A stretch of 49,037 nucleotides of DNA from Candidatus Uhrbacteria bacterium (lineage in GTDB: Bacteria > Patescibacteriota > Patescibacteriia > JACQRZ01). A program made the position numbers and the translations under genes. Below the pieces are notes generated by a model. It was not told the DNA's origin, searched no databases, and worked only from the letters and a program-made list of their open reading frames with translations. Shown piece after piece: positions 12,622 to 48,640 of the stretch (its first letter is position 1; each line of letters starts with the position of its first letter). The stretch is from assembly GCA_023246955.1 (NCBI GenBank), contig JAHFHK010000003.1:1-49037 (forward strand), given 5' to 3'.

Positions 12622-12662
12622 TTTCGTAAAAAAAAGCGATTTTACAGAGGTATGAGCAAAAT

Positions 12663-14461: not shown

Positions 14462-15235
14462 TTAGTTCTGGCTGTGATAGTCGGTACTCGGAGCACCGAT
14501 TTGGAAGTCGCTTCCAAAGTTGAACAATGTCACCGAAGCGCTACCGCTCGGCATCCATTTTTCTCCATCGAAAGCAATCATGGGAGTCAACTTAACTCTC
14601 CCGGCGAAGAAATCGAATTCAAATCCTCCGACTCCAGTCACCCCTGGCGTTCCATCAAAGGTGCCATTCATATGAGTACCGAGCGTAACCCACATAGAGA
14701 AGAACTTATCTTTCTCTGTGTTGGGGAAGGGGAGCCGTACGGACATGGTGTGATCCATGGCATACTGACCAAAGTCAGTAGTCGCACGGGCAGACCCTTT
14801 GAGATCAACGCCACCTAAGTTGAAGGTTTTGGTGAAATCAAGATCTATCCTCGGCCCGAGAAAGGCTCCATCGTTGGGGTTACCGAGAACATGGATTGCT
14901 CCAATCAATTCCCAATCTTTCCCACGAAGGACGCCGCCAGCACCACCACCGAGTCCATATTCACCAGACGAGTAGGGGCTCTGCGTGAGTCCATTCTCGA
15001 GTCCTGCGATATGTCCAACGACATCAGCGGTAAAACCGAATTCAATCTCCCCAGTTTTCCCGAGCATCGCAATAAAGCGAAGTCTTTGATCCCAGAAAGT
15101 AGCCTCATCATTACTGTCAGAGGTATTTTGCTGGAACGCAGTATTGCTACGCACTTCTAAGTGCGCATTATACGGCTTTGCCGGTTCTTTGATGGTGATC
15201 GGCTTTATTGGAGCAGGTGCTTCAGTGAGCGTCAC
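14462..15235 (-). CDS. Beta-strand-rich hypothetical protein without an obvious signal peptide
   Basis: Alternating aromatic/Gly-rich beta-like segments (GFEFDFFAGRVKLTPMIAF). The start lies 3 nt after the upstream gene's stop. Confidence 0.55.
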   Translation of the reverse strand: MTLTEAPAPIKPITIKEPAKPYNAHLEVRSNTAFQQNTSDSNDEATFWDQRLRFIAMLGKTGEIEFGFTADVVGHIAGLENGLTQSPYSSGEYGLGGGAGGVLRGKDWELIGAIHVLGNPNDGAFLGPRIDLDFTKTFNLGGVDLKGSARATTDFGQYAMDHTMSVRLPFPNTEKDKFFSMWVTLGTHMNGTFDGTPGVTGVGGFEFDFFAGRVKLTPMIAFDGEKWMPSGSASVTLFNFGSDFQIGAPSTDYHSQN

Positions 15236-15238
15236 CGA

Positions 15239-16027
15239 CTAATTCGTCGAAGACACAGGATTTTCTCCCATGAAGGTAACAGTATAGGGAAGCTTCGAAC
15301 GGCAGAAGTGTTCAACTCCTGTCTTCTTGGCGCTATACGGGTCACCTACCCCAGCTTGCTTGACCAGCTTGCCCTCTATATAGAGAGACTCAGCATTGGA
15401 TGACCACGTTAAATCGGTACATCCACCCTTTTTCAAGGAGGTTTTTTTCGCTTCAAGGGTTGAAGAAGCCTTTTCATACACATTAACAATCAGAGTTTCG
15501 GTAACCGTATTTCCACTAATACCAGTTGCCTGGACAGTGATAACACTTCTGCCGGGTTTCTTGAATGCCACGGTCGTTTTTGGAGTGAATTTCTGGGCAA
15601 AGTTGCTAATGCGGTATGCTGCATCCATACTATCTAACCCAAGGGCTTGATACTGGATACTCGACCCATTCCCACTTGACTGGTTCTGGGTGACCTTATA
15701 AGTCTGGTTGGCATTGGTAGTGCCTGCTGGAACAACTTTTTGGAAGGTTGCCTCACCGTTGGTGGCGATCGTTATGAGCTCCACTAACTCTGCACCTATC
15801 TCAATATCCTGGGGTTCATCAACTTTGAGATTGAGAACCTGTGGCCCATTGCCACTTTTCAGCTGTTTGCTGAGGATAGTGACCTTCCCTACCTTCTTAG
15901 CTCTTTCTTGAGGAGAGAGCACTTTCTTAGTAGGAGCCTTAGCAGGAGCTGCCTGTGAGGGCAGATTGCCAAACGCAACCGTGAGAGCGATAGCCGTAAT
16001 CATCAACTGAGAAAATCTTTTCTTCAT
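15239..16027 (-). CDS. Secreted hypothetical protein
   Basis: Signal peptide MKKRFSQLMITAIALTVAFGNLPSQAAP. First gene of the four-gene minus-strand operon. Confidence 0.65.
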   Translation of the reverse strand: MKKRFSQLMITAIALTVAFGNLPSQAAPAKAPTKKVLSPQERAKKVGKVTILSKQLKSGNGPQVLNLKVDEPQDIEIGAELVELITIATNGEATFQKVVPAGTTNANQTYKVTQNQSSGNGSSIQYQALGLDSMDAAYRISNFAQKFTPKTTVAFKKPGRSVITVQATGISGNTVTETLIVNVYEKASSTLEAKKTSLKKGGCTDLTWSSNAESLYIEGKLVKQAGVGDPYSAKKTGVEHFCRSKLPYTVTFMGENPVSSTN

Positions 16028-16354: not shown

Positions 16355-17701
16355 ATGAAAACCACAAAATTGACGGTAAAGTTAAGCGTATTGATGATTT
16401 CTCTAGCCCTGATGACCCTCCCTGGCTGCAAAAAACAGCTTCCGGCGGGTACAACTGGCCCCTCTGCTTCGCCATCTCCTTCGGGATCGGCGTCCGCATC
16501 AGCAAGCCCCTCACCGAGCGCAAGCCCAACCAGCACGCTTCCTAACGCTGCTGATCCGCCCAGAATCATTTCCCTGACAGCAGGGAATACAAACCCCGTC
16601 AAAGGGGAGGTGGTAAATTTCACTATCGGCATGGGTCCCGCACTCCGTGAAGGCTATAACAGCCGTGTAGTCCTAGAAAACAGCAATGGAGTCCGGATCT
16701 ACGAAGGGGCATACGGCAACGCTAATGTCACCGTAAACGCCTCCAAGGCTATTGATCAGTCAGGCGCCGTGACGGTGAAAGCCTATGTGGAAGCCGATAA
16801 GGTTATCACAGGGATGTCAACGCAACGGGGGCAAGAGCTTACACTCGCCTTGAACGTAAAAGAAGGAAGCGGATCAAACGATCCTAACGCTACCGACCCT
16901 CAAAAGGTGCTCAGTCTCATGCTGAGCTCTACTAATGTGAAGGTAGGGGATGCAGTGAATGCCGTCTATACCCTCAACCCAGCAAAAAACACCGACTATC
17001 AGGTAGCAGTGAAGGTCAATTGGGGAGATGGTGCTCCGAGCAGTACTCAGCTCTTCACCCCAGGAACGATGGCACCTTCGCTAGGAAGTCATACGTATAA
17101 CAGCGCAGGCACCTACAGTGTCTCCGCCTATACGGAATCTCCTACAAAAGGAACCTCACAGGCGATGTTTGCAACTATCATGGTCCAGGCAAACCCCGTA
17201 CCAACCCCGATTCCAGTCGTGACCCCTATACCAGTAGTCACTCCGCTACCCGTGAATCCAACGGTAGCACCTACGGTGAATCCAACAGTGAACCCCACGG
17301 TAGCGCCAACAGTAGCACCGACCGTGAATCCGACTGTTGCACCAACAGTGAATCCAACAGTGGCTCCCGCGCAAGGAGCAGCGATCTCTCGCTCAGGAAG
17401 CACGGTTACCATAACCGGACTATCCGCCGCGAATATCGTCGGCCCCTTCCCAGCCGGATATGATGCTGCAAAAATCATCGCAGACTTAGCTTCTGGAGCA
17501 GCAAAGCCTTCATTTGTCGGCACTGCTTCCGGATGGCAAGGTCCTGGGAGTCTCGGTAGTTATTCCGCCGGAACGGCAACGGTAACAGTGAGTGGCGAAG
17601 GCAATGTTGCCTACGTCGCTGGCAGCACGGTGCTAGGATGGACACTCAATACGTCCCTCCAAAACTATGCTACGGTATATACCGGTACCACCATAAAGTA
17701 A
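16355..17701 (+). CDS. Surface lipoprotein with a PKD-like domain and PT-rich tandem repeats
   Basis: Lipobox LMTLPGC, PKD-like NWGDGAPSS...HTYNSAGTYSVSAY, and (PTV[NA])n repeats. Confidence 0.75.
   Translation: MKTTKLTVKLSVLMISLALMTLPGCKKQLPAGTTGPSASPSPSGSASASASPSPSASPTSTLPNAADPPRIISLTAGNTNPVKGEVVNFTIGMGPALREGYNSRVVLENSNGVRIYEGAYGNANVTVNASKAIDQSGAVTVKAYVEADKVITGMSTQRGQELTLALNVKEGSGSNDPNATDPQKVLSLMLSSTNVKVGDAVNAVYTLNPAKNTDYQVAVKVNWGDGAPSSTQLFTPGTMAPSLGSHTYNSAGTYSVSAYTESPTKGTSQAMFATIMVQANPVPTPIPVVTPIPVVTPLPVNPTVAPTVNPTVNPTVAPTVAPTVNPTVAPTVNPTVAPAQGAAISRSGSTVTITGLSAANIVGPFPAGYDAAKIIADLASGAAKPSFVGTASGWQGPGSLGSYSAGTATVTVSGEGNVAYVAGSTVLGWTLNTSLQNYATVYTGTTIK
17199..17368 (+). repeat. In-frame tandem repeats coding PIPVVT x2 and about 9 units of PTV(N/A) (12-nt period)
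   Basis: Read directly as ...PTPIPVVTPIPVVTPLPVNPTVAPTVNPTVNPTVAPTVAPTVNPTVAPTVNPTVAP. Confidence 0.85.
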
Positions 17702-32070: not shown

Positions 32071-32226
32071 GACCTCTGAAAAAGTGATGTATTTTCATTG
32101 AATGGGCTGTTGAGCTCCAGGAAACGTATACAAATGTATGTTTCCGCCAGTAGGCGGATCCGCCATCTGGCGGAGAGTGGAGTCAACGGGTGCCCATGAA
32201 ATGAAAAGACGCGATTTTACAGAGGT
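32071..32226. repeat. Structured palindromic element, copy A (candidate ncRNA or MITE-like repeat)
   Basis: Terminal inverted ends GACCTCTGAAAA / TTTTACAGAGGT with nested stems. Homologous to 45565-45687, with compensatory stem substitutions. Confidence 0.6.
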
Positions 32227-32245
32227 TTCAAACAGAATAACCCCC

Positions 32246-33952: not shown

Positions 33953-34780
33953 ATGAGTAATAGCATGAAAGTACACCTGGTCATTATTGACCCACAAAAC
34001 GACTTCATGGACAGCCCTGGATCGGCGTTGCCGGTCTCTGGTGCCAATGAAGACATGCGCCGTTTGGCAGCCATGATCGAGCGCGTTGGCCATAAATTGG
34101 ACGATATCCACGTGACCCTCGACTCGCACCGCGTCATCGACGTGGGGCATCCAGGCATGTGGCGTGATCAAGACGGTAATCTTCCCGGTCCATTCACGAT
34201 CATATCGGCTGACGATATCAAGAACGGTATCTGGACGCCGAGAAACCCGAACTTTCGAGCAAGGATGCTAGAATATGCACGTGCTCTTGAAGTCCAAGGC
34301 AACTATCCATTGATGGTGTGGCCTGAGCATTGTCTCATCGGAACTCCCGGTCACAATGTGCAAGCAGACCTCATGGCAGTGTTGCAACGATGGGAGCGTA
34401 CTGAGTACGCGAATGTCGACTTTGTGACAAAGGGAACAAATACGTTTACCGAGCACTACGGTGCGTTGCAGGCAGAAGTGGTAGATGCCACAGATCCTTC
34501 AACGAGTCTCAACACGGCATTTCTCGACGTTTTAGCGAATGCAGATATTGTGGCAGTTGCAGGAGAGGCATTGAGCCATTGCGTAAAATCTACAGTGACC
34601 CAGATCGCTCAACATATCGGTCCGGATCAACTAAAAAAGTTTTACGTCCTGACCGATTGTACGAGTTCCGTTTCCCAAGTCGGAAATGGTCCTGACTTTC
34701 CCGCAATTGGACAAGCGTTTCTAAAAGAGATGGAAGCAAAAGGCATGACGCTGACCACCTCTATTGAATTTCTGAGCTAG
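33953..34780 (+). CDS. Isochorismatase/nicotinamidase-family cysteine hydrolase
   Basis: LVIIDPQNDF (catalytic Asp), FVTKGTN (Lys) and VAGEALSHCV (Cys) match the D-K-C triad pattern of this family. Confidence 0.7.
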   Translation: MSNSMKVHLVIIDPQNDFMDSPGSALPVSGANEDMRRLAAMIERVGHKLDDIHVTLDSHRVIDVGHPGMWRDQDGNLPGPFTIISADDIKNGIWTPRNPNFRARMLEYARALEVQGNYPLMVWPEHCLIGTPGHNVQADLMAVLQRWERTEYANVDFVTKGTNTFTEHYGALQAEVVDATDPSTSLNTAFLDVLANADIVAVAGEALSHCVKSTVTQIAQHIGPDQLKKFYVLTDCTSSVSQVGNGPDFPAIGQAFLKEMEAKGMTLTTSIEFLS

Positions 34781-34794
34781 GGAGGAAAATAAGA

Positions 34795-35541
34795 ATGCCA
34801 AGACTCGGAACCCAATCAGACATGCAAACCCACGCCTTGGGGGGAAATTTTAATTTCCAAGGAGCCAGGATCGATAACCTGGGTGCTACAGAATATACGC
34901 TCGTCACTATTGCGGTGGATACAACCGGATCGGTGAGCGGCTTCGCAAGTGAGCTAGACATGATGCTGGCAACTGCCGTTGAAGCTTGCAAAAAGTCTCC
35001 TCGGTCGGACAATCTACTGGTGCGAGTGATCTTCTTCTCGAGTATGAGAGGAGTTGATGAGATACACGGCTTCAAGCCACTTGCGGAAATTGATCCGCAG
35101 GCGTATCCAAAAATCAATCCCGGAGGCGCAACGCCGCTCTACGATGCGTGCTTTTCGGGCATTGCCGCCATGAATCTCTATGGCAAACAATTGACCGATC
35201 AAGATTTTGGCGTTAATGCCATATTTATAGCGGTCACTGACGGCGCGAACAATGATTCGAAGACTTCTGTGTCAATGGTGGCACAAGAGATCAAAAAGGC
35301 AGTCAGTGGAGAACTGGTTGAGTCGTTGGTATCGCTATTAATAGGGATCAATGCAAGTGGATGTGCTTCTGAACTACAGAGTTTCAAGAATGACGCAGGA
35401 CTTGACAGTTACATTGATGCCGGTGACGTGACGAAAGGAAAGCTGGCTAAGATTGCAGGATTTATTTCCCAGTCAATATCGAGCCAAAGCCAGGCATTGG
35501 GGACAGGCGGACCAAGCCAGCACATTTCTGCGACCATCTAA
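34795..35541 (+). CDS. von Willebrand factor A (TerY-like) domain protein
   Basis: MIDAS-like IAVDTTGSVSG (DxTxS) and IFIAVTDGANND. GGAGG RBS. Cytoplasmic, with no signal peptide. Confidence 0.75.
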   Translation: MPRLGTQSDMQTHALGGNFNFQGARIDNLGATEYTLVTIAVDTTGSVSGFASELDMMLATAVEACKKSPRSDNLLVRVIFFSSMRGVDEIHGFKPLAEIDPQAYPKINPGGATPLYDACFSGIAAMNLYGKQLTDQDFGVNAIFIAVTDGANNDSKTSVSMVAQEIKKAVSGELVESLVSLLIGINASGCASELQSFKNDAGLDSYIDAGDVTKGKLAKIAGFISQSISSQSQALGTGGPSQHISATI

Positions 35542-35566
35542 AATAGAGGGTCGTATCTGACATAAT

Positions 35567-35599
35567 GGCGATGGGGAACATTCTCCATCGCTTTTTTTC
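35567..35599 (+). terminator. Rho-independent terminator or attenuator between the vWA and PP2C genes
   Basis: Stem GCGATGGGGA/TCTCCATCGC followed by TTTTTTT. Confidence 0.6.
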
Positions 35600-35631
35600 T
35601 TCAAGAATAAAGAAAGGAAAAGGACTAAAAA

Positions 35632-36540
35632 ATGGACGAAATCAATAGAGGGGAACTTTCCGCGGACCATTATTTTCATATTGGTCAGGCACACCTCGTA
35701 AGCGGAAAACCGTGTCAGGATTATGCTATCTCTGGCCTCCATATGGGAGCCGCATACGCAGTCATTGCTGATGGGTGCTCTACGGGAGGAAATACCGATG
35801 TGGGCGCACGTATCATAGCACTGTCTACTGCCCAAGCGATACGGGAGCATCATATACTTATGCTTGCAAGTCAGGGAGGGGTGACAATGGGTGCTCAAGA
35901 AATAAACGAACGACAAAAAGGAGTACTCAGTGTCACACGAAAACTCCTCGGCCTTGAGCAGAGTGATATGCTGGCAACATGTCTCTATGTGTATATGACT
36001 CCTCGCGGGGGGGTTATCAATATACGAGGGGATGGAGTTGTTGCGCTGAAGTATCGAACGGGAGATATAAAAGTATTCCGTATGGAGTGGGGGAACAATA
36101 TGCCATTCTATCCGGCATACGAGGAATCACAGCTGAGCAGCTTTATAGCAGCCCATGGCGCAAATAACGAACCATCACTACGGTTGGAATGTAATATATA
36201 TAACCCAGATGGGACACTAAGAAAGGGGTATTGCCGAGAGCTATCTCTTGATTCGGGCATCGCAGGAAATACATTGAGTATTCCAGAAAAAGAGATGGAT
36301 CAGTTAGAGTTTGTCGCAGTATTTTCTGATGGGGTGACACAAATCGATGCCGTGGAATGGAGCAAAGCGGTGCAGTCATTCATGCGGTTTAAGAACACTA
36401 CTGGTGAGTTTGCAAAGCGACGAATGATTCGTGGCATTAAAGACTTTCAGAAGATGGGTAAAGGTCCCATTGATGATATAGCCTATGCGGTGGTGTACAA
36501 TAATCAGATACAGTTACGGGAGGATACAACATATGGCTAA
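35632..36540 (+). CDS. PP2C-family (PP2C_2-like) serine/threonine phosphatase
   Basis: GKPCQDY, AVIADGCSTGGNTDVGARI and AVFSDGVTQ metal-binding aspartate motifs. Confidence 0.7.
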   Translation: MDEINRGELSADHYFHIGQAHLVSGKPCQDYAISGLHMGAAYAVIADGCSTGGNTDVGARIIALSTAQAIREHHILMLASQGGVTMGAQEINERQKGVLSVTRKLLGLEQSDMLATCLYVYMTPRGGVINIRGDGVVALKYRTGDIKVFRMEWGNNMPFYPAYEESQLSSFIAAHGANNEPSLRLECNIYNPDGTLRKGYCRELSLDSGIAGNTLSIPEKEMDQLEFVAVFSDGVTQIDAVEWSKAVQSFMRFKNTTGEFAKRRMIRGIKDFQKMGKGPIDDIAYAVVYNNQIQLREDTTYG

Positions 36541-38254
36541 TCGCGAGGTAATACTCGAACATAGAGGTGCGCTAACACTACGTACCAGTGACTATATCAC
36601 AACGGGAGGAGAGGGGAGCGTCTATAAAAAAGGCGATACCGTCATAAAGATATACACCGATCCCAAAAAAATGCAGAACGAGGGTATGCCGGAAAAGATA
36701 CGACTACTTTCACGGCTTGCGCACGAATATATTATAGAGCCCAAGGGGCTTGTGATGAACAAAGCAGGAAACCCGATAGGATTCTATATGGCCCATGCCG
36801 CAGGAGAACCACTATCGCGCGTATTTACGAATGATTTTCGTACTCGTGAGGCATTCGGTGATGATGACGTATTGGTGCTTGCGGATCGTATGCGTAATGT
36901 TTGTATCTTCGCACACGGCAAGAACGCCCTTTTGGTCGATCCCAACGAGCTTAATTGGCTTGTTGCATTGAGTAAGAAAGACGGCCCAGCACCAAGAGCA
37001 ATCGACGTAGACTCATGGGCTATCGGGAAATGGAAAGGGACAGTGATTATGCCATCAATTCGTGACTGGCATTCGCGGGTCTTTGATCAACGTACCGATT
37101 GGTATGCATGGGGAATAGTAACATTCCAGCTCTTCACGGGGATTCATCCCTATAAAGGTAAGTTAGATGGGTATAAGCCTGGTGAGATGGAACGACGCAT
37201 GAAAGAAAATGCTTCAGTATTTCGCCCGGATATCCGTCTCAATAGTGCAGTACGCGACTTTGCATGCATCCCGAATCGTCTCCTCAACTGGTACGTCGCT
37301 ACCTTCGAAAGGGGTGAACGAACGATACCGCCATCACCGTTTGACATCGCTCATATACCAACACCTGCAATACAGACGCTCCGTGCCGTGGTAACGGGTT
37401 CTGGGCTCCTGACGTATCAGAAGCTACTGAGTGGTGTTGGAGATCCTATTATAAGGATTTTCACGAACGGCATTGTGCTATCGAAATCAGGAAAACTATT
37501 GCATCTCGGTACAAAGCGAGAAATAGGGAGAACCACCTCACTAGATATTGAGGTGGTAGCGGTGCATGGAGGGTATGTGAAGGTAGAGAAAAATAACGGA
37601 CAATTTCTCTTCTCCTTCATGAACGGAGTGAGTCTTCAAGAACAGCCTCTCTCATGTCCGATCCAACCACATAGCATTGTATGGTATGAGGACCGCATGT
37701 TCGCCGTTACGGAGCAGGGACTCAGTGAGCTAGTGTTCAGGATACTGGGAAAGCCCATACTGTCTATGGGGCAGACATGGGGAGCGATGATGAATGCAAC
37801 CCGTTGGTATGACGGAGTAGGTATTCAGGATGCCATGGGGGCAACCTATGTGATCGCTCCGTTCGAGGCGGCATCATGTGCGCATATTCGTGTGCATGAG
37901 CTTGATGGCATGAAGCCCATTAACGCAAAGGCGGGTAATCGTTTCATAGTCATTATCGCCATCGATCGATCGGGAAGATATCACAAGATTGAACTCACGA
38001 TGGATCGAGTATACAAACAGTATGTATTCTGGAAGCGTGAGAAGGATAGCCCTGAGCTCAACACGGTTATTCTCCCAAAGGGGGTAGCCGCAGTCATAGA
38101 AGAGGACGGTGAACTTAATATCTACGTTCCCACGAATGGTGCTCTGAACAAAATAAAAGACAAGGGTATAAAAACCGACAGACCTTTATCACGCTGGGGG
38201 GACATAGTAACATATATCCACGACGGCGATATATGGAGTATACGAGTGAAATAA
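36533..38254 (+). CDS. Protein-kinase-like protein with a C-terminal domain of about 280 aa of unknown function
   Basis: G-loop/Lys TTGGEGSVYKKGDTVIKIY, catalytic-loop-like LLVDPNELNWL, DFG-equivalent IDVDSW, and TDWYAWGIVTFQLFTGIHPYKG. The ATG overlaps the PP2C stop (ATGGCTAA). Confidence 0.7.
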   Translation: MANREVILEHRGALTLRTSDYITTGGEGSVYKKGDTVIKIYTDPKKMQNEGMPEKIRLLSRLAHEYIIEPKGLVMNKAGNPIGFYMAHAAGEPLSRVFTNDFRTREAFGDDDVLVLADRMRNVCIFAHGKNALLVDPNELNWLVALSKKDGPAPRAIDVDSWAIGKWKGTVIMPSIRDWHSRVFDQRTDWYAWGIVTFQLFTGIHPYKGKLDGYKPGEMERRMKENASVFRPDIRLNSAVRDFACIPNRLLNWYVATFERGERTIPPSPFDIAHIPTPAIQTLRAVVTGSGLLTYQKLLSGVGDPIIRIFTNGIVLSKSGKLLHLGTKREIGRTTSLDIEVVAVHGGYVKVEKNNGQFLFSFMNGVSLQEQPLSCPIQPHSIVWYEDRMFAVTEQGLSELVFRILGKPILSMGQTWGAMMNATRWYDGVGIQDAMGATYVIAPFEAASCAHIRVHELDGMKPINAKAGNRFIVIIAIDRSGRYHKIELTMDRVYKQYVFWKREKDSPELNTVILPKGVAAVIEEDGELNIYVPTNGALNKIKDKGIKTDRPLSRWGDIVTYIHDGDIWSIRVK

Positions 38255-38280
38255 TTTCACTCCGCACGAATCAATGATAG

Positions 38281-38312
38281 GGATAGCTAATATATAGCTA
38301 TCCCTCTTTTTA
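38281..38312 (+). terminator. Rho-independent terminator
   Basis: Stem GGATAGCTA/TAGCTATCC followed by a T-rich tail. Confidence 0.65.
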
Positions 38313-38321
38313 TAAAAACCC

Positions 38322-38350
38322 TTGACAAAATAAGCGATTCGTGGTATATA
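38322..38350 (+). promoter_or_regulatory. Sigma-70-type promoter (TTGACA-N17-TATATA, with TGG upstream); paralogous to 39543-39571
   Basis: ACCCTTGACAAAATAAGCGATTCGTGGTATATATAC closely matches the region upstream of 39621. Confidence 0.6.
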
Positions 38351-38400
38351 TACACCCAGATTCATTGAAAATAAAAAAGAAAAGGGAGACATAAGACACC

Positions 38401-39477
38401 ATGAAAAGAACAGTAATACTAGGAATAATGGCGATACTGACGGCATGTGGGGAGGGAACGAATCTTTCGACCCCGCCAACACCACTCACGGCAAGCATGA
38501 CAAAGACGCTTGCACAGCAAACCCAGGATGACGTGGTAACGCAAGGCTTCAATGCAACTATAACGGGTCTGCAAAAGATGGTAGAAACATTAACCGATGC
38601 CAATACCAAAAATCTCGGCGAGATTGCTCGACTCCAGGATGAAGTGAAAGCATGGAAAAAAATCGCAGAGGCAACACAACCCGGCACCACGGCAATACCT
38701 GCTGATGTCCAAAAACAAATCGCAGTGCTGGAGACCAGGATTGCAGTATTGCAAAAAAATGGAGACTCGGTACCCATCGATCTTTTTCGAGAGGTGCTCG
38801 ACAAACTCCCTATTGCATCAGCGGTGCCAACAAGTACCTCTCCATTCGGTGATGACGATTTCTTCCATCCAACACTGCCGATACCAACGCCCTCGCCTAC
38901 ACCTTCTCAATCTCCGACCGAAGCGTCCCCGCCGACGGTTGTCTCCTCTACGTCCCCGGTAACAGAAGGGGCGAGTCAGCTCTCATGGAGTAAGGGATAC
39001 AAGTACGTCAGGATAACGACGAATACCCTAACGCAGACCTTTGATCTGAATTGGAAATATCCGGAATCGGTAGCGGAAATAACGCTGAGAGGGGTCAGTG
39101 ATATATACACTGGAGTAAACATACGAGACATGATGATGGTCGTCGAAGAAGGATATTCTTCAGCAACGCCCAAACTAACCCTCTTGAATGGATCGCATCC
39201 AGTAACGCTAGCAGAAGACGCGGAAAGCCGAGGGGTATACCGCATCGCACAGGACCTCATCATACCGACAGATACTCCCGTGGTACTACGAGCGTATTTC
39301 TCTCCGAATCCAGAGTTGAAGGAAGACTCATGGATGCCCTCATCCTTTAAACTTTCCGTTTACATGACCCCGGTCGAACGATATCAAGACTCGACCTACC
39401 AGCACGGAGAGAAGAATGTGTCCTCCTTCACGGTGATACCGCTCACTCCATCGCCCAGCCCATCGCCCAGTGCCTAA
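38401..39477 (+). CDS. Lipoprotein with a coiled-coil segment, PT/S linker and beta-rich C-terminal domain
   Basis: Lipobox GIMAILTAC, a heptad-like region, TPSPTPSQSPTEASPP, and a PSPSPSPSA tail. Confidence 0.7.
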   Translation: MKRTVILGIMAILTACGEGTNLSTPPTPLTASMTKTLAQQTQDDVVTQGFNATITGLQKMVETLTDANTKNLGEIARLQDEVKAWKKIAEATQPGTTAIPADVQKQIAVLETRIAVLQKNGDSVPIDLFREVLDKLPIASAVPTSTSPFGDDDFFHPTLPIPTPSPTPSQSPTEASPPTVVSSTSPVTEGASQLSWSKGYKYVRITTNTLTQTFDLNWKYPESVAEITLRGVSDIYTGVNIRDMMMVVEEGYSSATPKLTLLNGSHPVTLAEDAESRGVYRIAQDLIIPTDTPVVLRAYFSPNPELKEDSWMPSSFKLSVYMTPVERYQDSTYQHGEKNVSSFTVIPLTPSPSPSPSA

Positions 39478-39490
39478 ATAAGCCATACAT

Positions 39491-39531
39491 GCCGCTATAT
39501 TTTTCATAATGAGAAATATGGCGGCTTTTTT
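39491..39531 (+). terminator. Rho-independent terminator
   Basis: Stem GCCGCTATATTT/AAATATGGCGGC followed by TTTTTT. Confidence 0.75.
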
Positions 39532-39542
39532 ATGCAAAACCC

Positions 39543-39571
39543 TTGACAAAATAAGCTATTCATGGTATACA
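39543..39571 (+). promoter_or_regulatory. Sigma-70-type promoter (TTGACA-N17-TATACA, with TGG upstream)
   Basis: ACCCTTGACAAAATAAGCTATTCATGGTATACATAC. Confidence 0.6.
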
Positions 39572-39620
39572 TACGAGCGAATTCATTGCCAAATACAAAC
39601 AAAAAAAGGGAGAGAAAACA

Positions 39621-40283
39621 ATGAATAAAGTAGCAATAACGATAGCGATAGTGATAGTGAGTGTTCTGACGGGTTGCGGAGGAAATTCGCAATTCTATGA
39701 AATGGAAGCGATGAAGGCAAAGATAAAAAGCCTGGAAGAAAGAGTACCGGTAGCTTTGCAAAAAGCACCCGCACCACCCCCGCCACTGATCACTAACGCC
39801 ATTGCGCCAATCCCGCTACAAAGCTGGAGCGTCGTAAGCGATAAAGTACGCGTAGAAGGAATACCATCCCAAAATCCTCTGGATCAAGGAATGCTCCAGG
39901 TACGCATTGCAGAAATGAAAGTGACAAACAGTGCACCAGGGCCAGTCAACCTTCAGGGCATGTATATGCTCGTGAAGCCAGTGAATATGGACCTCTCCGA
40001 CGTGAAAGCATTCAGTGAACACGTTACAACCATGCAGCATATCGGTGACCTATCTGAGGGAACGCGAGTGTATAAGATCAATGATCCATTCATTGTTCAG
40101 ACCAGTGCTCCCCTCGGTGGATTCGTCCTCGCGGATGCATTCAAGCAAGACCGCAACCGCATTGGCGTTGTAGAAACGACCTTCGTAGGACGACCTCTGG
40201 GCGATATGAGCGCCGGCGATGTATACACTCAGGTAGCGGCAAATCCTTCGATCGCCGCGAAAGTAGTAAATACTTTCAAATAA
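39621..40283 (+). CDS. Lipoprotein, hypothetical
   Basis: Lipobox VSVLTGC, a short coiled coil, APAPPPP linker, and a beta-rich domain. Confidence 0.7.
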   Translation: MNKVAITIAIVIVSVLTGCGGNSQFYEMEAMKAKIKSLEERVPVALQKAPAPPPPLITNAIAPIPLQSWSVVSDKVRVEGIPSQNPLDQGMLQVRIAEMKVTNSAPGPVNLQGMYMLVKPVNMDLSDVKAFSEHVTTMQHIGDLSEGTRVYKINDPFIVQTSAPLGGFVLADAFKQDRNRIGVVETTFVGRPLGDMSAGDVYTQVAANPSIAAKVVNTFK

Positions 40284-43381: not shown

Positions 43382-44449
43382 ATGAATATTCAAGGAAGGC
43401 ACCCCTCAGGACCTCCATTCAAAATGGAGCCAAAGGTAGAAGAGCTCATTAACGCCATGATAGCATTCTGCGAGCAACCACTGCCGGAAGAAGATCCCGC
43501 TACCACAAGTCCAGTGGAGACCATGGTACCTACTGGCACAGCACTGGATCTTCCGGAACCTCCAAAAGGCGCGATGCCCCTCCCCGCAACAACTCCAGTA
43601 ACGACGGTACTATTTCCCGCCCCCGCTATATATTTCCCCCCGGCGCCAAAACCAGGAAATATATCATTAGACGAGGCTGCCGATCATACTCAGTACCAGC
43701 AGTTCTATACAGAACTCAAGACGCTTTTTGGCACAGGCTTCTGTGGTATCGACGAGGTAACCCGTGCGTTCACTACTCAAAATGGGGTTCTGCCAGGGAA
43801 CACCATGGCATCCTTCCACGAACGACTCCATGGAGCCACTCTCAAGGCCCTCTGGGATAACTGCCAAAAACCAGACATCGCCGCATTCCTTTCCAAGATA
43901 AAAGCTGGAGAAGTAAACGCAAGCGACTGGCTCCTCATCCTCAGGATACCATTCCTAAAGAAGCCAAATGAGGAGAAAGAAATCCCGCTCACCATGAAAG
44001 CCCTCCAGGAGCACATCGCTCCCGATATGCTCAAGTGTGAGCAAGGGAAGCTTCTTTATGAGGTAAGCTGGTATCCACAGGAAGTTTTCTATGCCACTCA
44101 GGCGATATCTAGCTTCCATTGGCAATTTGTCACCAAGGCATGTACTCCAGGAACCAAAGGCGTGAATCACGATGCGCAAGCTACCGCACTGAACGCCTAT
44201 GCTCAAAAAGTAGGTCTCGACCCTGCGCTAACCCGCAGACGCATCCCTGTCGAAGTACCCTACGATCATCTCGTGACACTCCGTGCACACAACATGCGCC
44301 TCCTCGTCAATGAGTACGATTGGACGGATACGCGTGCGTCTGATGGCGGCTGCGTGTTCGTCGGTGATGGTGATGCGTACGGGCTCGGCGTGTTCAGGCG
44401 CTCCGCCGACGTCTCGGACGGTGATCGGGGTGCGTGCCTCTCCCGCTGA
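43382..44449 (+). CDS. DGR variable (target) protein 1, with a C-terminal VR-bearing domain
   Basis: The C-terminal 38 codons are VR1. The last roughly 230 aa are paralogous to target 2 (LFG..FCGID.VTRAFT, WLLILRIPFLK, LTMKALQEH.APDM, HWQFVTKAC). Confidence 0.85.
   Translation: MNIQGRHPSGPPFKMEPKVEELINAMIAFCEQPLPEEDPATTSPVETMVPTGTALDLPEPPKGAMPLPATTPVTTVLFPAPAIYFPPAPKPGNISLDEAADHTQYQQFYTELKTLFGTGFCGIDEVTRAFTTQNGVLPGNTMASFHERLHGATLKALWDNCQKPDIAAFLSKIKAGEVNASDWLLILRIPFLKKPNEEKEIPLTMKALQEHIAPDMLKCEQGKLLYEVSWYPQEVFYATQAISSFHWQFVTKACTPGTKGVNHDAQATALNAYAQKVGLDPALTRRRIPVEVPYDHLVTLRAHNMRLLVNEYDWTDTRASDGGCVFVGDGDAYGLGVFRRSADVSDGDRGACLSR
44332..44445 (+). repeat. DGR variable repeat VR1
   Basis: 114-nt alignment to the TR (45389-45502). 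There are 20 mismatches, 19 of them at TR adenines. The 3' 18 nt are identical. Confidence 0.85.
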
Positions 44450-44578
44450 TGTTGACACTGTCCTGCTGGACCCTTGACCGCCCCTGGCGGCCTGACCACC
44501 AGCGAGCCAGCTGGTGGATTGGACTCCTGACTGTCCCCTGAATTCCTTCAGTGTACCGACCCCGTCGGTGCACCTCCC

Positions 44579-44610
44579 GAGCCCTTTCGAATGAAAGGGC
44601 TCTTTTTTAT
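44579..44610 (+). terminator. Rho-independent terminator (repeated module GAGCCCTTTCGAATGAAAGGGCTC + T6)
   Basis: Perfect 10-bp stem followed by a T-run. An identical copy is at 48609-48640 and a variant at 47084-47110. Confidence 0.8.
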
Positions 44611-44689
44611 ACCACGCGTCGAATTGGTGAATGTTTTCTTGAAAACAATCTGTCATCGTGGTAGTATCAATAATAATAATGGTTGCAAT

Positions 44690-44935
44690 ATGAAAAAATC
44701 ATCAAAAATTTACCACTTTTCCGTTGTCATAGAGCGTGATGAAGATGGCATGTACGTCGGCACTGTGCCTGCTCTACGCTCATGCTACACGCAGGCAAAA
44801 ACTATACCAGTATTGTACGAGCGTCTTGAAGAAGTTGTGGCTCTGTGTCTAGAAGTTGAGAAGGACATTTTCAAAGATCACATTACGCAAAACCAGTTGG
44901 TAGGAGTGCAGCAATTAGATTTTAAAATGGCATAG
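44690..44935 (+). CDS. hicB: HicB-family antitoxin (UPF0150-type)
   Basis: YHFSVVIERDEDGMYVGTVPALRSCYTQAKTIPVLYERLEEVVALCLE matches the HicB N-terminal fold pattern. A promoter-like TTGAAA-N17-TAGTAT lies upstream. Confidence 0.75.
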   Translation: MKKSSKIYHFSVVIERDEDGMYVGTVPALRSCYTQAKTIPVLYERLEEVVALCLEVEKDIFKDHITQNQLVGVQQLDFKMA

Positions 44936-44939
44936 CAGT

Positions 44940-45173
44940 ATGCCACCGCTACACCTCGTATCAGGAAAGAGGCTACTAAAGATGATGAAGGAGCTTGATT
45001 TTGAAGTTATCCGCGTTCGTGGGAGCCATCATTTTCTTAGTCGAATGTCTGACGGAAAAACAACGGTGGTATCTATTCATGGTAATGACGAGATAAGCAG
45101 AGGTCTTCTTCGCACTATCCTGAGAGACATAGAAATTTCTGTAGAGGAATATGAAAAACTGCGTGTGATGTAA
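44940..45173 (+). CDS. hicA: HicA-family mRNA interferase toxin
   Basis: SGKRLLKMMKELDFEVIRVRGSHHFL...VVSIHGNDEISRGLLRTILRD (YcfA/HicA pattern). Confidence 0.8.
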   Translation: MPPLHLVSGKRLLKMMKELDFEVIRVRGSHHFLSRMSDGKTTVVSIHGNDEISRGLLRTILRDIEISVEEYEKLRVM

Positions 45174-45276
45174 GTCGCATAAGCACCATAAACTATCCCT
45201 TGAACCTCCTCGGCGCTATACTAAATGAATGATGGTTTATAGAATCACCACATCCTGTGGACTGGTTTACCGTCAT

Positions 45277-45312
45277 GATACGATTGTCAACACTGCTTCG
45301 TATCGTTTTTTT
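45277..45312 (+). terminator. Rho-independent terminator after hicBA
   Basis: Stem GATACGA/TCGTATC followed by GTTTTTTT. Confidence 0.6.
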
Positions 45313-45388
45313 CTCAGGCGAGGGGGTCAAGGAAGATTAACATCCAGCAAACCCATCTCGCCACGAATACGGATGCGCGATATGAAGG

Positions 45389-45502
45389 ACGTACGTCTAA
45401 TGGCAACTTCGTGAACGTCGGTAATGGTGATGCGAACGGGCTCAACGTGAACAGGAACTCCGCCGACGACTCGAACGGTAATCAGGGTGCGTGCCTCTCC
45501 CG
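45389..45502 (+). repeat. DGR template repeat (TR)
   Basis: Non-coding copy of the VR sequence, rich in AAC/AAT triplets. 22 of its 27 adenines are substituted in VR1 and/or VR2. Homology to the VRs ends at CTCCCG and then diverges (IMH* versus IMH). Confidence 0.85.
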
Positions 45503-45524
45503 AAGTGTCGACAACGATCGTAGG

Positions 45525-45556
45525 GAGTCCTTCTTCATACGGAGGACTCTTTTTTC
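45525..45556 (+). terminator. Terminator-like hairpin directly 3' of the TR
   Basis: Stem GAGTCC/GGACTC followed by TTTTTT. Confidence 0.5.
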
Positions 45557-45564
45557 ATGGAAAA

Positions 45565-45687
45565 GACCTCTGAAAAATTGATGGATTTTCATTGAATGGG
45601 CTATCGAATCCAGGGAACGTATGGATAATACGTTGAGTGGATTCGATGGGTGCCCGTGAAATGAAAAGGCGCGATTTTGCAGGGGTC
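45565..45687. repeat. Structured palindromic element, copy B (candidate ncRNA), lying between the TR and the avd 3' end
   Basis: Homologous to 32071-32226, with compensatory changes (ATCGAATCC/GGATTCGAT versus GTTGA(G)CTCC/GGAGTCAAC). Confidence 0.6.
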
Positions 45688-45689
45688 GT

Positions 45690-46040
45690 CTATATCGAAC
45701 GGATCCATCCACCGAGCATTCTGCCAACCTCGTCGAGCTCTTCTTCGAGATCAAGATACGTTTTCTCGGGGATAATACGGAGACGGGCACTCAGCCGAAT
45801 CAAGATCTTCACCTCATCGAGGCGTGGACTCACCTGTATGAGCTGAAAACGAGCCTGCTCTCGGCTCAAATACTGCGCGCGCATAATGACGGTAAGAAGT
45901 TCGAGCAATGAATCAGAGACTTTGTGTGCTATGGTATAGCGGTCACTTTTCGGAAATTTTTTTGCATAGATATGCCACCGACAAAAGAAATCAAACAAAC
46001 GCGAGAAAAGGACAGTGTTCCGTTGGGGGGGGGTAGACAT
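45690..46040 (-). CDS. avd: Avd-like four-helix-bundle protein (DGR accessory variability determinant; 23S rRNA IVS protein family)
   Basis: YAKKFPKSDRYTIAHKVSDSLLELL...RLDEVKILIRLS...LDLEEELDEVGRMLGGWI matches the four-helix-bundle family pattern. It is adjacent to the TR and RT. Confidence 0.7.
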   Translation of the reverse strand: MSTPPQRNTVLFSRLFDFFCRWHIYAKKFPKSDRYTIAHKVSDSLLELLTVIMRAQYLSREQARFQLIQVSPRLDEVKILIRLSARLRIIPEKTYLDLEEELDEVGRMLGGWIRSI

Positions 46041-47042
46041 AGTACCTTATTTGAAAAAATAATAAGCCTCGCAAACCTCTATGCTGCGTGGCGAGAATTT
46101 GAAAGAGGAAAACGCAATCGCCCAGACGTGCAAGAATTCGCATACGATATCGAGAAAAATATCTTCGATCTTCGCGCACGACTCGTATCGCAACAATGGA
46201 CGCACGACCAGTATACAATGTTTCATGTCTGCGATCCAAAACCGCGCATAGTCCACAAAGCGACCGTAAGCAATCGAATCGTACACCACGCTATCGTTCG
46301 TCACATCGAACCCCTATTCGAACGGTCTTTCATCTTTGATACCTGGTCATGCAGGACAGGAAAGGGGACGCATGCAGCGATGCTCCGTGCGCATGAGAAA
46401 TTAAGAGAACTCTCCCAAAAAACCAAAGGAGAGATATGGGTCCTGCAATGCGACATCAAAAAATATTTTCAATCCGTCGATCACGATATACTGACACGCA
46501 TACTTCAAAAAAATATCATCGACACAGAGACGCTCACGCTCCTGCGAAATATCATCGATAGTTTCTCGCCCGGCATCCCTCTAGGGAATCTCACATCACA
46601 GCTCTTCGCAAACATCTACCTCAACCCCTTCGATCACTTCGTCAAAGAAATCCTGCGCCCCGCATCCTACATTCGCTATTGCGATGACTTCTTCCTCACA
46701 CATCCCTCCCGGGAATATCTAGTGAATTGCTACCGCCAAATCGACACATTCCTCAAGACCCGCCTTCACCTTACCCTCCATCCGAATAAAATCCACCTCC
46801 ACCCATTCCGCTACGGCATAGATTTCCTCGGTCACGTACTGTACCCCGACGGAAGGAGACTACGCCACGTTTCTCGAAAACGTATGCAGCGACGAGTCCA
46901 GGAGGCGGTCAACGAGTTGAGCACAGGAAAACGCTCGTATGCATCTACATGCGCAATCATCGCCTCGTATAAGGGCATGGTGCAGTACGCCTCATCTCAT
47001 TACGACGACGAGCTCCTCGATCTGCTAAAACAATGCCTATAA
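45972..47042 (+). CDS. DGR-type reverse transcriptase
   Basis: RT motifs DPKPRIVHKA, QCDIKKYFQSVDH, IPLGNLTSQLFANIYLNPFDH (the DGR-typical LGxxxSQ) and YIRYCDDFFL. About 356 aa, with no maturase or endonuclease domains. Start is uncertain (GTG 45924, ATG 45972, TTG 46023). Confidence 0.88.
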   Translation: MPPTKEIKQTREKDSVPLGGGRHSTLFEKIISLANLYAAWREFERGKRNRPDVQEFAYDIEKNIFDLRARLVSQQWTHDQYTMFHVCDPKPRIVHKATVSNRIVHHAIVRHIEPLFERSFIFDTWSCRTGKGTHAAMLRAHEKLRELSQKTKGEIWVLQCDIKKYFQSVDHDILTRILQKNIIDTETLTLLRNIIDSFSPGIPLGNLTSQLFANIYLNPFDHFVKEILRPASYIRYCDDFFLTHPSREYLVNCYRQIDTFLKTRLHLTLHPNKIHLHPFRYGIDFLGHVLYPDGRRLRHVSRKRMQRRVQEAVNELSTGKRSYASTCAIIASYKGMVQYASSHYDDELLDLLKQCL

Positions 47043-47083
47043 CCACCCTACCAAACTACGTCGATCCCGTTGGAGCCCTCCCC

Positions 47084-47110
47084 GAGCCCTCTTAAATGAA
47101 AGGGCTCTTT
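47084..47110 (+). terminator. Terminator-like hairpin after the RT (variant of the repeated GAGCCC...GGGCTC module)
   Basis: Stem GAGCCCT/AGGGCTC with a short T-run. Confidence 0.5.
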
Positions 47111-47168
47111 ACGCACGCTATGCAAGAGCGACTTCCCAAAAAACCCAAAAATATAACCAAAACTGACC

Positions 47169-47197
47169 TTGACAACCACACATATCTCTGCTAGTAT
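47169..47197 (+). promoter_or_regulatory. Sigma-70-type promoter (TTGACA-N17-TAGTAT, with TGC extended -10) for DGR target 2
   Basis: The TTG start of track ORF 47169 is the -35 hexamer itself. The real start is ATG 47238. Confidence 0.6.
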
Positions 47198-47237
47198 CGG
47201 GACAAGTATATCGTTCATTGAAAGGAAAACACAACTC

Positions 47238-48443
47238 ATGAGTGAACAGACGGAAAAAACATTACGCGAGTATGCCCCGCTCATACTCCGAACATTTCAT
47301 AACGAATACGGACGGAGCGGAGCATACCCCATCTTTCACCTCACACAGAACGCAGAAGCCACGGCATTCGTGGCGGGTGGGAACACGAGTAACTGGCAAG
47401 AAGGAATGCGTTCAGTCGGTGTTGCACTGTATCATAGCGTGCGGGGAGTGTCAGAACACACAGACCCCAGCTACGCGATCAACCCTTATCCACCACTCGA
47501 AGGAACACTAGGGGAGATCATCAACGAATTAGTAGACGATCGAGTATCTATTGATACGCTGGATCGCCTCCTCGCAGGTCTACAGAGACCTCAACCCAGC
47601 ATAACGTTAATTCCGACAAACCTACCGAGCAACGGCCCATTGGTGATTATCGTACCAGATCCACCGAAGCCAAGCGCAATAGAAGAACAAGCGAGACACT
47701 ATGAATCACTCCGCACACTCTTTGGCGCTAACTTCTGCGGTATCGATGGAGTAACCCGTGCATTCACATTGAACGACGGTACCACATTAGCATCCTATCC
47801 GGATGCGTACCGTGTATCTATCCTGAAAGCGCTCTGGGACAAATGCCAAGAGCCCGACGTAGCAAAGTTCCTCTCTCATATTAAAGAGGGAAAGGTAAGT
47901 GCAAGTGGTTGGCTCCTCATACTCCGAATACCGTTCCTGAAACGGGCAGGCAAAGATATTCCGCTCACCATGAAAGCGCTTCAAGAGCATGTCGCTCCCG
48001 ACATGATAGCGCACAGCCAAGGAAAATTGTTTTGTTCGGCTGCAGACAGTAACTGTTGGTATACAAACAACGAAGTATTCTACGATACCGAGTCGATACC
48101 ATCATGTCATTGGCAATTCGTAACAAAAGCGTGCGTCGAAGGGACAAAAGGTAAAAAACACGGGCAACAAACAACGGTACTCAATAAGTGTGCCAAAACA
48201 GTAGGATTCGATCCTACCCTCGTCCGCAGGCGCAGGCCAGTGGAAATACCATACGACCACGCCATAATGCTGCGAGAACATAATGTACGTCTTCTCGAAG
48301 GTGAATGGGATTGCACGGACACAATGCGTGCGTCTGATGGCCTCTTCGTGAGCGTCGGTTATGGTGATGCGTACGGGCTCGACGTGAGCAGGCTCTCCGC
48401 CGGCGGCTCGGGCGGTGGTCAGGGTGCGTGCCTCTCCCGCTGA
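47238..48443 (+). CDS. DGR variable (target) protein 2
   Basis: The C-terminal codons are VR2. It is paralogous to target 1 over the C-terminal region of about 230 aa and has a different N-terminal region. Confidence 0.85.
   Translation: MSEQTEKTLREYAPLILRTFHNEYGRSGAYPIFHLTQNAEATAFVAGGNTSNWQEGMRSVGVALYHSVRGVSEHTDPSYAINPYPPLEGTLGEIINELVDDRVSIDTLDRLLAGLQRPQPSITLIPTNLPSNGPLVIIVPDPPKPSAIEEQARHYESLRTLFGANFCGIDGVTRAFTLNDGTTLASYPDAYRVSILKALWDKCQEPDVAKFLSHIKEGKVSASGWLLILRIPFLKRAGKDIPLTMKALQEHVAPDMIAHSQGKLFCSAADSNCWYTNNEVFYDTESIPSCHWQFVTKACVEGTKGKKHGQQTTVLNKCAKTVGFDPTLVRRRRPVEIPYDHAIMLREHNVRLLEGEWDCTDTMRASDGLFVSVGYGDAYGLDVSRLSAGGSGGGQGACLSR
48326..48439 (+). repeat. DGR variable repeat VR2
   Basis: 114-nt alignment to the TR shows 18 mismatches, all at TR adenines. 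Confidence 0.85.
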
Positions 48444-48608
48444 TGTTGACACTGTCCTGCTGGTCTCTTAACCGCCCCTGGCGGCCTGACCACCAGTTCG
48501 ACTGGTGGATTGGACTCCTGACTGCCCCCTGAATTTACTCAGTGCGCTAGCATAGTCGGCGTACTCCGATTTCAATGAGTGTCGCTGGCTGTATCGGCGC
48601 GCCCCTCC

Positions 48609-48640
48609 GAGCCCTTTCGAATGAAAGGGCTCTTTTTTAT
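48609..48640 (+). terminator. Rho-independent terminator (identical copy of 44579-44610)
   Basis: GAGCCCTTTCGAATGAAAGGGCTC followed by TTTTTT. Confidence 0.8.

Follow-up and report, generated by a model that had tools for sequence, protein, structure and literature searches.

The sequence repeated at positions 32071–32227 and 45565–45687 of the analysed DNA is best explained as a dispersed mobile palindrome of the MITE or REPIN kind, non-autonomous and about 123 nt long, in an uncultured groundwater bacterium of the Patescibacteria that is related to Candidatus Uhrbacteria. We give this reading a probability of about 0.7. The window, that is, the whole stretch of 49,037 nt that was analysed, is chromosomal DNA from a member of the Patescibacteria (CPR). 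It carries murD, ftsW, murG, murC, murB, secA, secDF, alaS and the gene for a TraD/TrwB-like ATPase, among others, and the best-named homologs of this ATPase are from Candidatus Uhrbacteria and Falkowbacteria. The ends of the element are highly conserved and have sharp boundaries, and its centre varies without loss of pairing. Like a MITE, it is short (123–157 nt), has stop codons in all + frames, terminal inverted repeats and many copies, and differs in presence and absence. It is a new repeat family of a familiar kind of element and not a new kind of RNA gene.

Copy A occupies 157 nt of the + strand (32071–32227). An earlier note on this DNA had placed its end at 32226; one more base, 32227, was included here, and it is the pairing partner of G32071. 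The left arm (32071–32113) carries the conserved terminus GACCTCTGAAAAA and the inner box TTTTCATTGAATGGGC, the fold places the apical hairpin GGAAACGTATAC/GTATGTTTCC at 32119–32143, and the right arm GAGTGGAGTCAACGGGTGCCCATGAAATGAAAAGACGCGATTTTACAGAGGTT lies at 32175–32227. At 32144–32174, copy A alone has a nested 31-nt G+C-rich palindrome, CCGCCAG-TAG-GCGGATCCGC-CAT-CTGGCGG; this is the extra palindrome described before, here located at 32144–32173/4 and unique in the window. Copy B, also on the + strand, is 123 nt long, which is the common length class, and runs from 45565 to 45687, exactly where it had been placed. Its left arm (45565–45607) and right arm (45635–45687) were recognized by their likeness to the arms of copy A and by metagenome contigs. 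No part of the family varies more than the apical hairpin, in copy B AACGTAT-GGATA-ATACGTT (45616–45634), where other copies show linked compensatory changes.

Identity between the two copies is 89% over 47 nt in the left arms and 87% over 52 nt in the right arms. Conservation is highest at the termini, with 14/14 identical positions at the left end, and in both copies the termini form terminal inverted repeats in which GACCTCTG.AAAA pairs with TTTT.CAG(A/G)GGT(C/T). A solo right end, AAAAGCGATTTTACAGAGGT, which had already been pointed out, was confirmed on the + strand at 12632–12651. It starts 10 nt past the secA stop codon and contains the exact 16-mer GCGATTTTACAGAGGT (12636–12651), preceded by a run of A; it is probably the remnant of a copy that decayed. 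The right-end motif has three matches in the window against 0.17 expected, and the inner-arm motif four against 0.63. The 8-mer GACCTCTG, which equals the left terminus of the element, is also present at 12568–12575, within the last secA codons, which encode the DLC of the zinc-finger tail. It lies 61 nt upstream from the solo end and could pair with it. This 8-mer occurs five times in the window against 1.4 expected, and the occurrence inside secA may be due to chance.

The + strand of each copy folds as one long imperfect hairpin, at -72.6 kcal/mol (z = -8.9) for copy A, with the insert nested in it, and at -61.8 kcal/mol (z = -10.8) for copy B. In both cases 0 of 200 shuffled sequences folded as well, and together with the motif counts this places the shared motifs and folds beyond chance. 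The arms folded alone reached only -0.5 to -2.8 kcal/mol (z -0.85 to +1.3), no better than shuffles. When the insert of copy A is set aside, the two copies have 38 consensus pairs in common and none is broken. Two pairs have changed on both sides (G-C to A-U and U-A to C-G), three have changed on one side to G.U, and three U.G pairs are common to both copies. The stems quoted in the earlier note, GTTGA(G)CTCCA/TGGAGTCAAC in copy A and ATCGAATCCA/TGGATTCGAT in copy B, are correct, and so are its apical hairpins. A covariance model built from two sequences, copy A without its insert and copy B, matched only copy A (101.6 bits) and copy B (142 bits) in the window. The compensatory stem changes that the note had claimed are thus real, with two double changes and no broken pair among 38, but it does not follow from them that the element is an RNA, as the same pattern is found in REPIN mobile DNA (PMC3116915).

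Contigs of the source metagenome show further changes of this type. Six contigs cross the centre of the element. The apical stem reads GATGTAG...CTACATT in the two with depths of 7.6 and 8.03, and AACGTAT...ATACGTT in others. The variant stem has changed on single molecules from C-G to U-A, from U-A to G-C and from A-U to G.U, that is, by two linked double changes and one G.U. Aligned to copy B, the same two contigs account for two paired changes at depth 15.6, namely 45618 C>T with 45632 G>A and 45622 T>G with 45628 A>C, and for 45616 A>G; the contig of depth 8.03 additionally has 45610 C>T with 45640 G>A. Elsewhere in the stem, paired columns have matching variant counts: 45603 A>G (7 contigs) with 45647 T>C (11 contigs), 45605 C>T (6) with 45645 G>A (6), and 45608 A>T (4) with 45642 T>A (3), while columns 45597/45656 are seen as U.G, U-A or C-G. 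Many contigs cover one arm only as the assembler breaks inside the repeat, and the counts of the two arms come partly from different copies; except in the cases given with their depths, they are matched frequencies and not linked pairs. Linked full-length copies number two (A and B), and most covariation at the level of the family comes from partial contigs.

The copy number was estimated from Logan contigs of the source groundwater metagenome aligned to copy A at 80% likeness. Across the 46 contigs found, depth rose from 4.9–5.2 in the unique flanks to 215–265 in the arms (left arm, 215–265 against 5 in the flanks; right arm, 88–225). It stayed at 4.9 in the private insert of copy A, which indicates that the other copies do not have the 31-nt insert. 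On copy B, 55 contigs gave a depth of 130–310, and their alignments ended sharply at 45564/5 and 45687. Past 45564 and 45687 the letters of these contigs agreed only at 0.47–0.53, and therefore the flanks differ between copies. The contigs had depths of 4.7–11, like that of the window itself. The rise from about 5 in the flanks to 130–310 suggests roughly 30–60 copies, mostly of the 123-nt type of copy B, although the contigs of this sample may stem from more than one strain or species. Such a number agrees with what the window contains, two copies and a fragment in 49 kb, given a genome size of about 1 Mb. The differences among the copies on these contigs are mostly transitions and are not specific to adenines. 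The search for further copies by sequence likeness, which had been proposed earlier, thus yielded dozens in the source metagenome.

Judged from related sequences, which lack the element at the matching positions, both window copies are inserted into very short spacers adjoining stop codons. Copy A begins 24 nt past the stop codon of the TraD-like gene and ends 18 nt before the start codon of a membrane-protein gene at 32246. The closest relative obtained is the Logan contig L105. It is syntenic with the window, with a nucleotide identity of about 78%, and its TraD-like protein is 96% identical to that of the window over the ATPase region. In L105 the distance from the TraD-like stop codon to the next ATG is 5 nt, against 199 nt in the window including copy A. 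The orthologous site is therefore empty and copy A is an insertion, although at an identity of only about 78% the comparison cannot fix the exact insertion point. The element had been thought to lie in the 5' region of the membrane-protein gene; this is not the case, as the L105 ortholog starts at an ATG matching 32246 and the element lies in the spacer, between genes whose closeness in the relative had gone unnoticed. With the start fixed at 32246, the 561-aa open reading frame from 32138, whose ATG is inside the element, is an artefact. This ATG (MKRRDF...; window 32138–32245) belongs to the right arm, reads outward and, in copy A, shares the frame of the downstream gene. In both copies, each of the three + frames of the left arm contains a TGA stop codon. 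Further downstream, a segment of about 6.3 kb (33953–40283) holds seven genes (isochorismatase-like, PP2C-like and several without a Pfam match) between the membrane-protein gene and a tRNA methyltransferase gene. These two genes are about 0.4 kb apart in L105, which suggests a strain-specific island.

Copy B sits inside a diversity-generating retroelement (DGR), a setting that the earlier note had missed. The DGR (43382–48443) is complete and has two targets. Target gene 1 (43382–44449) contains the variable repeat VR1 (44333–44445), and target gene 2 (47169–48443) contains VR2 (48327–48439). Between them are the template repeat (TR, 45390–45502), a bAvd gene on the - strand (45690–46040) and, divergent from it, the reverse transcriptase (RT) gene on the + strand (about 46044–47042). 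VR1 differs from the TR at TR adenines in 18 of 19 positions and VR2 in 17 of 17, and from its sequence the DGR looks intact and active. L105 has a homolog of the target gene (14673–15587), with a VR (15470–15583) that is 82% identical to the window TR, and its contig ends directly after it. In the window the TR is followed by a short spacer with a hairpin (45523–45555), the 123-nt element and the avd stop codon; copy B begins 62 nt past the TR and ends 2 nt from this codon. The nearest RT homologs, in loci L107 and L109, are only 52–55% identical. Both loci have the same layout, with a target, the TR, one hairpin, avd (-) and RT (+), and there roughly 50–80 nt without the element separate the end of the TR from the avd stop codon. 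As the homologous DGRs lack the element between TR and avd, copy B is also an insertion. With dozens of copies, differing flanks and empty sites in relatives at both loci, the MITE- or REP-like mobile palindrome has gained support among the options of the earlier note, which had also named a small RNA and a protein-binding cruciform.

Several other small structures lie in the same locus. Between the TR and the avd stop codon, directly behind the TR, three related DGRs each have one hairpin, at 45523–45555 in the window, about 4607–4636 in L107 and about 4600–4635 in L109. Its position is conserved but its sequence is not, and its role may be that of a two-way terminator or of a structure at the 3' end of the TR RNA. 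A second small repeat, at 44557–44605, 47062–47110 and 48587–48635, consists of a terminator-like hairpin GAGCCCTTTCGAATGAAAGGGCTCTTT with a conserved leader of about 20 nt, and follows target 1, the RT gene and target 2. A HicB-like/HicA toxin–antitoxin pair lies between target 1 and the TR (44591–45173); L107 and L109 have no such pair there, and it therefore looks like another cassette insertion.

The place of copy B, 62 nt past the TR and adjoining avd and the RT gene, raises the question of whether the element is a native part of the DGR, as a structured spacer RNA 3' of the TR needed by the RT/Avd complex, with copy A as a stray duplicate. The Bordetella phage DGR reportedly needs a spacer RNA after the TR for priming, which would count in favour of this explanation. 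However, homologous DGRs of the same layout keep only the short hairpin, and in relatives, including the L107 and L109 loci, the covariance model found only ordinary terminator hairpins. Tens of copies have unrelated flanks, copy A is 13 kb from the DGR, and the copies differ mostly by transitions and not specifically at adenines. The absence of the element from the L107 and L109 spacers indicates that it is not a DGR component; a DGR spacer RNA was rejected on these grounds, and we consider the explanation very improbable. The two strands of the element are not equivalent. The + strand folds contain six (copy A) and five (copy B) G.U pairs, 11 in all at eight distinct positions of which three are common to both copies, and the - strand folds contain none. 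Fold energies are -72.6 on the + strand against -62.1 kcal/mol on the - strand for copy A, and -61.8 against -40.5 kcal/mol for copy B. Of the 20–21 internal unpaired bases on the + strand 19–20 are purines, and these include conserved tandem G-A/A-G oppositions. As G.U pairs are confined to the + strand and the loops are purine-rich, the imperfections are not those of a double-stranded palindrome decaying at random. It is in the single-stranded + form, whether ssDNA or RNA, that the fold matters or that mutations are at least filtered. This partly answers which strand would be transcribed, which the earlier note had left undecided, since all G.U pairs and nearly all mismatched bases favour folding of the + strand. 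G.T wobble stabilizes hairpins of ssDNA too, so that the asymmetry fits ssDNA as well as RNA, and an asymmetry in G.T alone could instead result from strand-biased C-to-T mutation.

These features might mean that the element is mainly a module acting at the RNA level, either an ERIC-like cis-acting hairpin in the + transcript that serves processing, stability or coupling of the neighbouring cistrons or a released small RNA, with mobility merely the means of its spread. Copy A lies within a gene pair that is tightly coupled in L105, and all three window copies (3/3) are sense-oriented behind + strand genes or transcripts, although n = 3 proves little. On the other hand, relatives do without the element at both sites, the family seems limited to one lineage and has no match in Rfam, and the element contains no promoter-like hexamers or terminator-like site and has no T run after the hairpin. 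Three metatranscriptomes of the same study gave no contig of the element despite about 50 loci, and this argues weakly against an abundant small RNA, as they also contained nothing from 20 kb of the same organism. Taken together, we regard a mainly RNA-level module as rather unlikely. By a broader account, which we hold to be improbable too, the hairpin is selected as a single-stranded + structure, either (a) in a mobile RNA module that is a processing or stability signal between cistrons of CPR or (b) as the substrate of a hairpin-ssDNA transposition other than REP/RAYT. The conserved U.G pairs and tandem G-A loops lead to option (a); if option (b) is true, this would be the first hairpin-ssDNA transposition system described in reduced Patescibacteria genomes. 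A different question is whether the palindrome moves as a classical MITE of a DDE transposase, that is, an internally deleted insertion sequence of which only the termini are functional and the internal complementarity is inherited, not selected. This is the commonest origin of bacterial MITEs (PMC10969869), and well-conserved termini, many copies and empty sites in relatives are all in line with it. Against it, copy B has no abutting direct repeat of at least 3 nt, and at copy A only inconsistent 3-mers were found, even with each boundary shifted by up to 6 nt; this test of target-site duplication covers two copies only, and such duplications decay with age. The double changes keep the pairing of the middle and apical stems, which a DDE enzyme does not need, and the wobble pairs are found on one strand only. 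The lack of target-site duplication, the pairing over the whole length and the one-strand asymmetry point away from a DDE-type MITE and towards a folded single-strand intermediate, and we consider a DDE origin rather unlikely.

For the non-autonomous mobile palindrome that we favour, a mechanism can be proposed. A transposase encoded elsewhere in the genome would act in trans and recognize the conserved 13–14 nt termini; the window genes include no transposase domain and no autonomous parent element. The hairpin would be needed over its whole length in the single-stranded + form, most simply as a folded ssDNA intermediate such as has been proposed for REPINs and IS200/IS605-type elements. This intermediate would explain the absent target-site duplication, the compensatory changes and the wobble pairs on one strand. 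After sense insertion behind genes, the element would be transcribed along with them and form a very stable hairpin in the 3' UTR or between cistrons. A hairpin of -60 to -70 kcal/mol at such a site would be expected to affect RNA processing or decay, and it may be a barrier to RNases or a substrate of RNase III, as in Correia and ERIC elements, which would be a side effect and not its raison d'être.

The family was searched for elsewhere. Rfam gave no matches at the gathering score for the whole window, in agreement with the earlier note, which had recognized no named RNA family, and around the copies at E values up to 10 it gave only one meaningless 13-bit lncRNA match. In a run index, 31-mers of the element occurred only in the run of the source DNA, a groundwater metagenome. 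Exact-pattern scans for the inner left arm returned chance-level numbers, with 66 matches in GTDB species genomes, 24 in JGI metagenomes and 10 + 4 in IMG/VR, and none had the partner arm; the family was therefore not found outside the source sample. A 20-mer match in a viral contig was dismissed as chance. The element was unmatched by blastn against plasmids and phages, and a chimeric peptide made from all its open frames matched nothing among 5.8 billion proteins. A literature search found no report of such repeats in Patescibacteria. From these searches the family appears to be confined to one lineage, as repeats of this type usually are.

Genomes of CPR/Patescibacteria measure about 1 Mb, are compact and, by most descriptions, contain little mobile DNA. 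A 123-nt hairpin present in tens of copies, one of them between genes separated by 5 nt in a relative and another inside an active-looking DGR, would show that miniature mobile elements can still expand in a reduced CPR genome. The repeat has practical consequences as well. It disrupts the short-read assembly of this organism, whose Logan contigs end inside the element, and it creates spurious long open reading frames such as the 561-aa reading of the membrane-protein gene. A full set of copies would test whether the compensatory changes reflect an ssDNA transposition intermediate or a role in RNA. The current understanding of bacterial repeats is unchanged by the element. The window also contains other repeats. 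An 80-nt repeat (76% identical; 38304–38383 and 39525–39604) lies upstream of two neighbouring genes of unknown function and holds a near-consensus promoter, with CTTGACA, 17 nt and then TATATA or TATACA. Tandem 12-nt repeats at 17250–17371 form a repetitive coding stretch within the gene at 16355–17701.

Among known systems, the element resembles REPINs, which are REP doublets that form hairpins and are mobilized by the tyrosine HUH transposases RAYT/TnpA-REP (Bertels & Rainey 2011, PMC3116915). REPINs have conserved ends, a variable spacer, common compensatory changes and singlet remnants (PMC3116915). Both have inverted conserved ends, a variable spacer in which compensatory changes keep the pairing, a single-strand hairpin over the whole length, tens to hundreds of extragenic copies, no target-site duplication, and lone ends that are read as decayed remnants. 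Unlike REPINs, the arms of the element have no REP-type hairpins of their own and its ends have no GTAG-type motif; there is no sequence similarity, and the host belongs to the CPR and is neither a proteobacterium nor a cyanobacterium. Identity with REP units was rejected because the arms do not fold alone. The window contains no gene for a RAYT (Y1 HUH transposase). ERIC/IRU elements of Enterobacteriaceae and Vibrionaceae, imperfect palindromes of about 127 bp, are similar in size and in being palindromic over their whole length. They too occupy short spacers between genes, within transcription units or directly behind them, and have size variants caused by an internal insert such as that of copy A. 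ERIC has orientation-dependent effects on mRNA decay (PMC10969869). The host phylum is different, however, and blastn in a distant mode against 5,426 complete E. coli genomes, which carry ERIC, found no match to the element and thus no sequence similarity.

Correia elements (CREE, or NEMIS, of Neisseria) and other MITEs such as RUP, QMITE and Sulfolobus SM1-4 are likewise small, non-coding and multi-copy, with inverted ends, copy numbers in the tens and insertion next to genes. MITEs occupy intergenic or 3' UTR sites in tens of copies and give stable stem-loop transcripts (PMC10969869), and Correia elements are co-transcribed as stable hairpins that can be cleaved by RNase III (PMC2649163; PMC10969869). 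Insertion of Correia elements duplicates TA, and these elements contain promoter and IHF motifs, whereas the element described here shows no duplication and no promoter-like hexamers, and it is complementary along its full length and not just at its ends. An integron attC site, which needs RYYYAAC...GTTRRRY cores, was rejected as well: the ends of the element are GACCTCTG...CAG(A/G)GGT(C/T), its copies are dispersed and there is no cassette array. MITE-like insertions in DGR loci have been reported in Thiohalocapsa PB-PSB1 (bioRxiv 10.1101/2023.09.22.558884), where, as at copy B, a hairpin-forming mobile repeat lies inside the DGR cassette near the TR and accessory genes. The repeats of Thiohalocapsa match ends of insertion sequences of the same genome, form arrays and destroyed parts of the DGR, whereas copy B is single and lies in a spacer of a DGR that looks intact and active.
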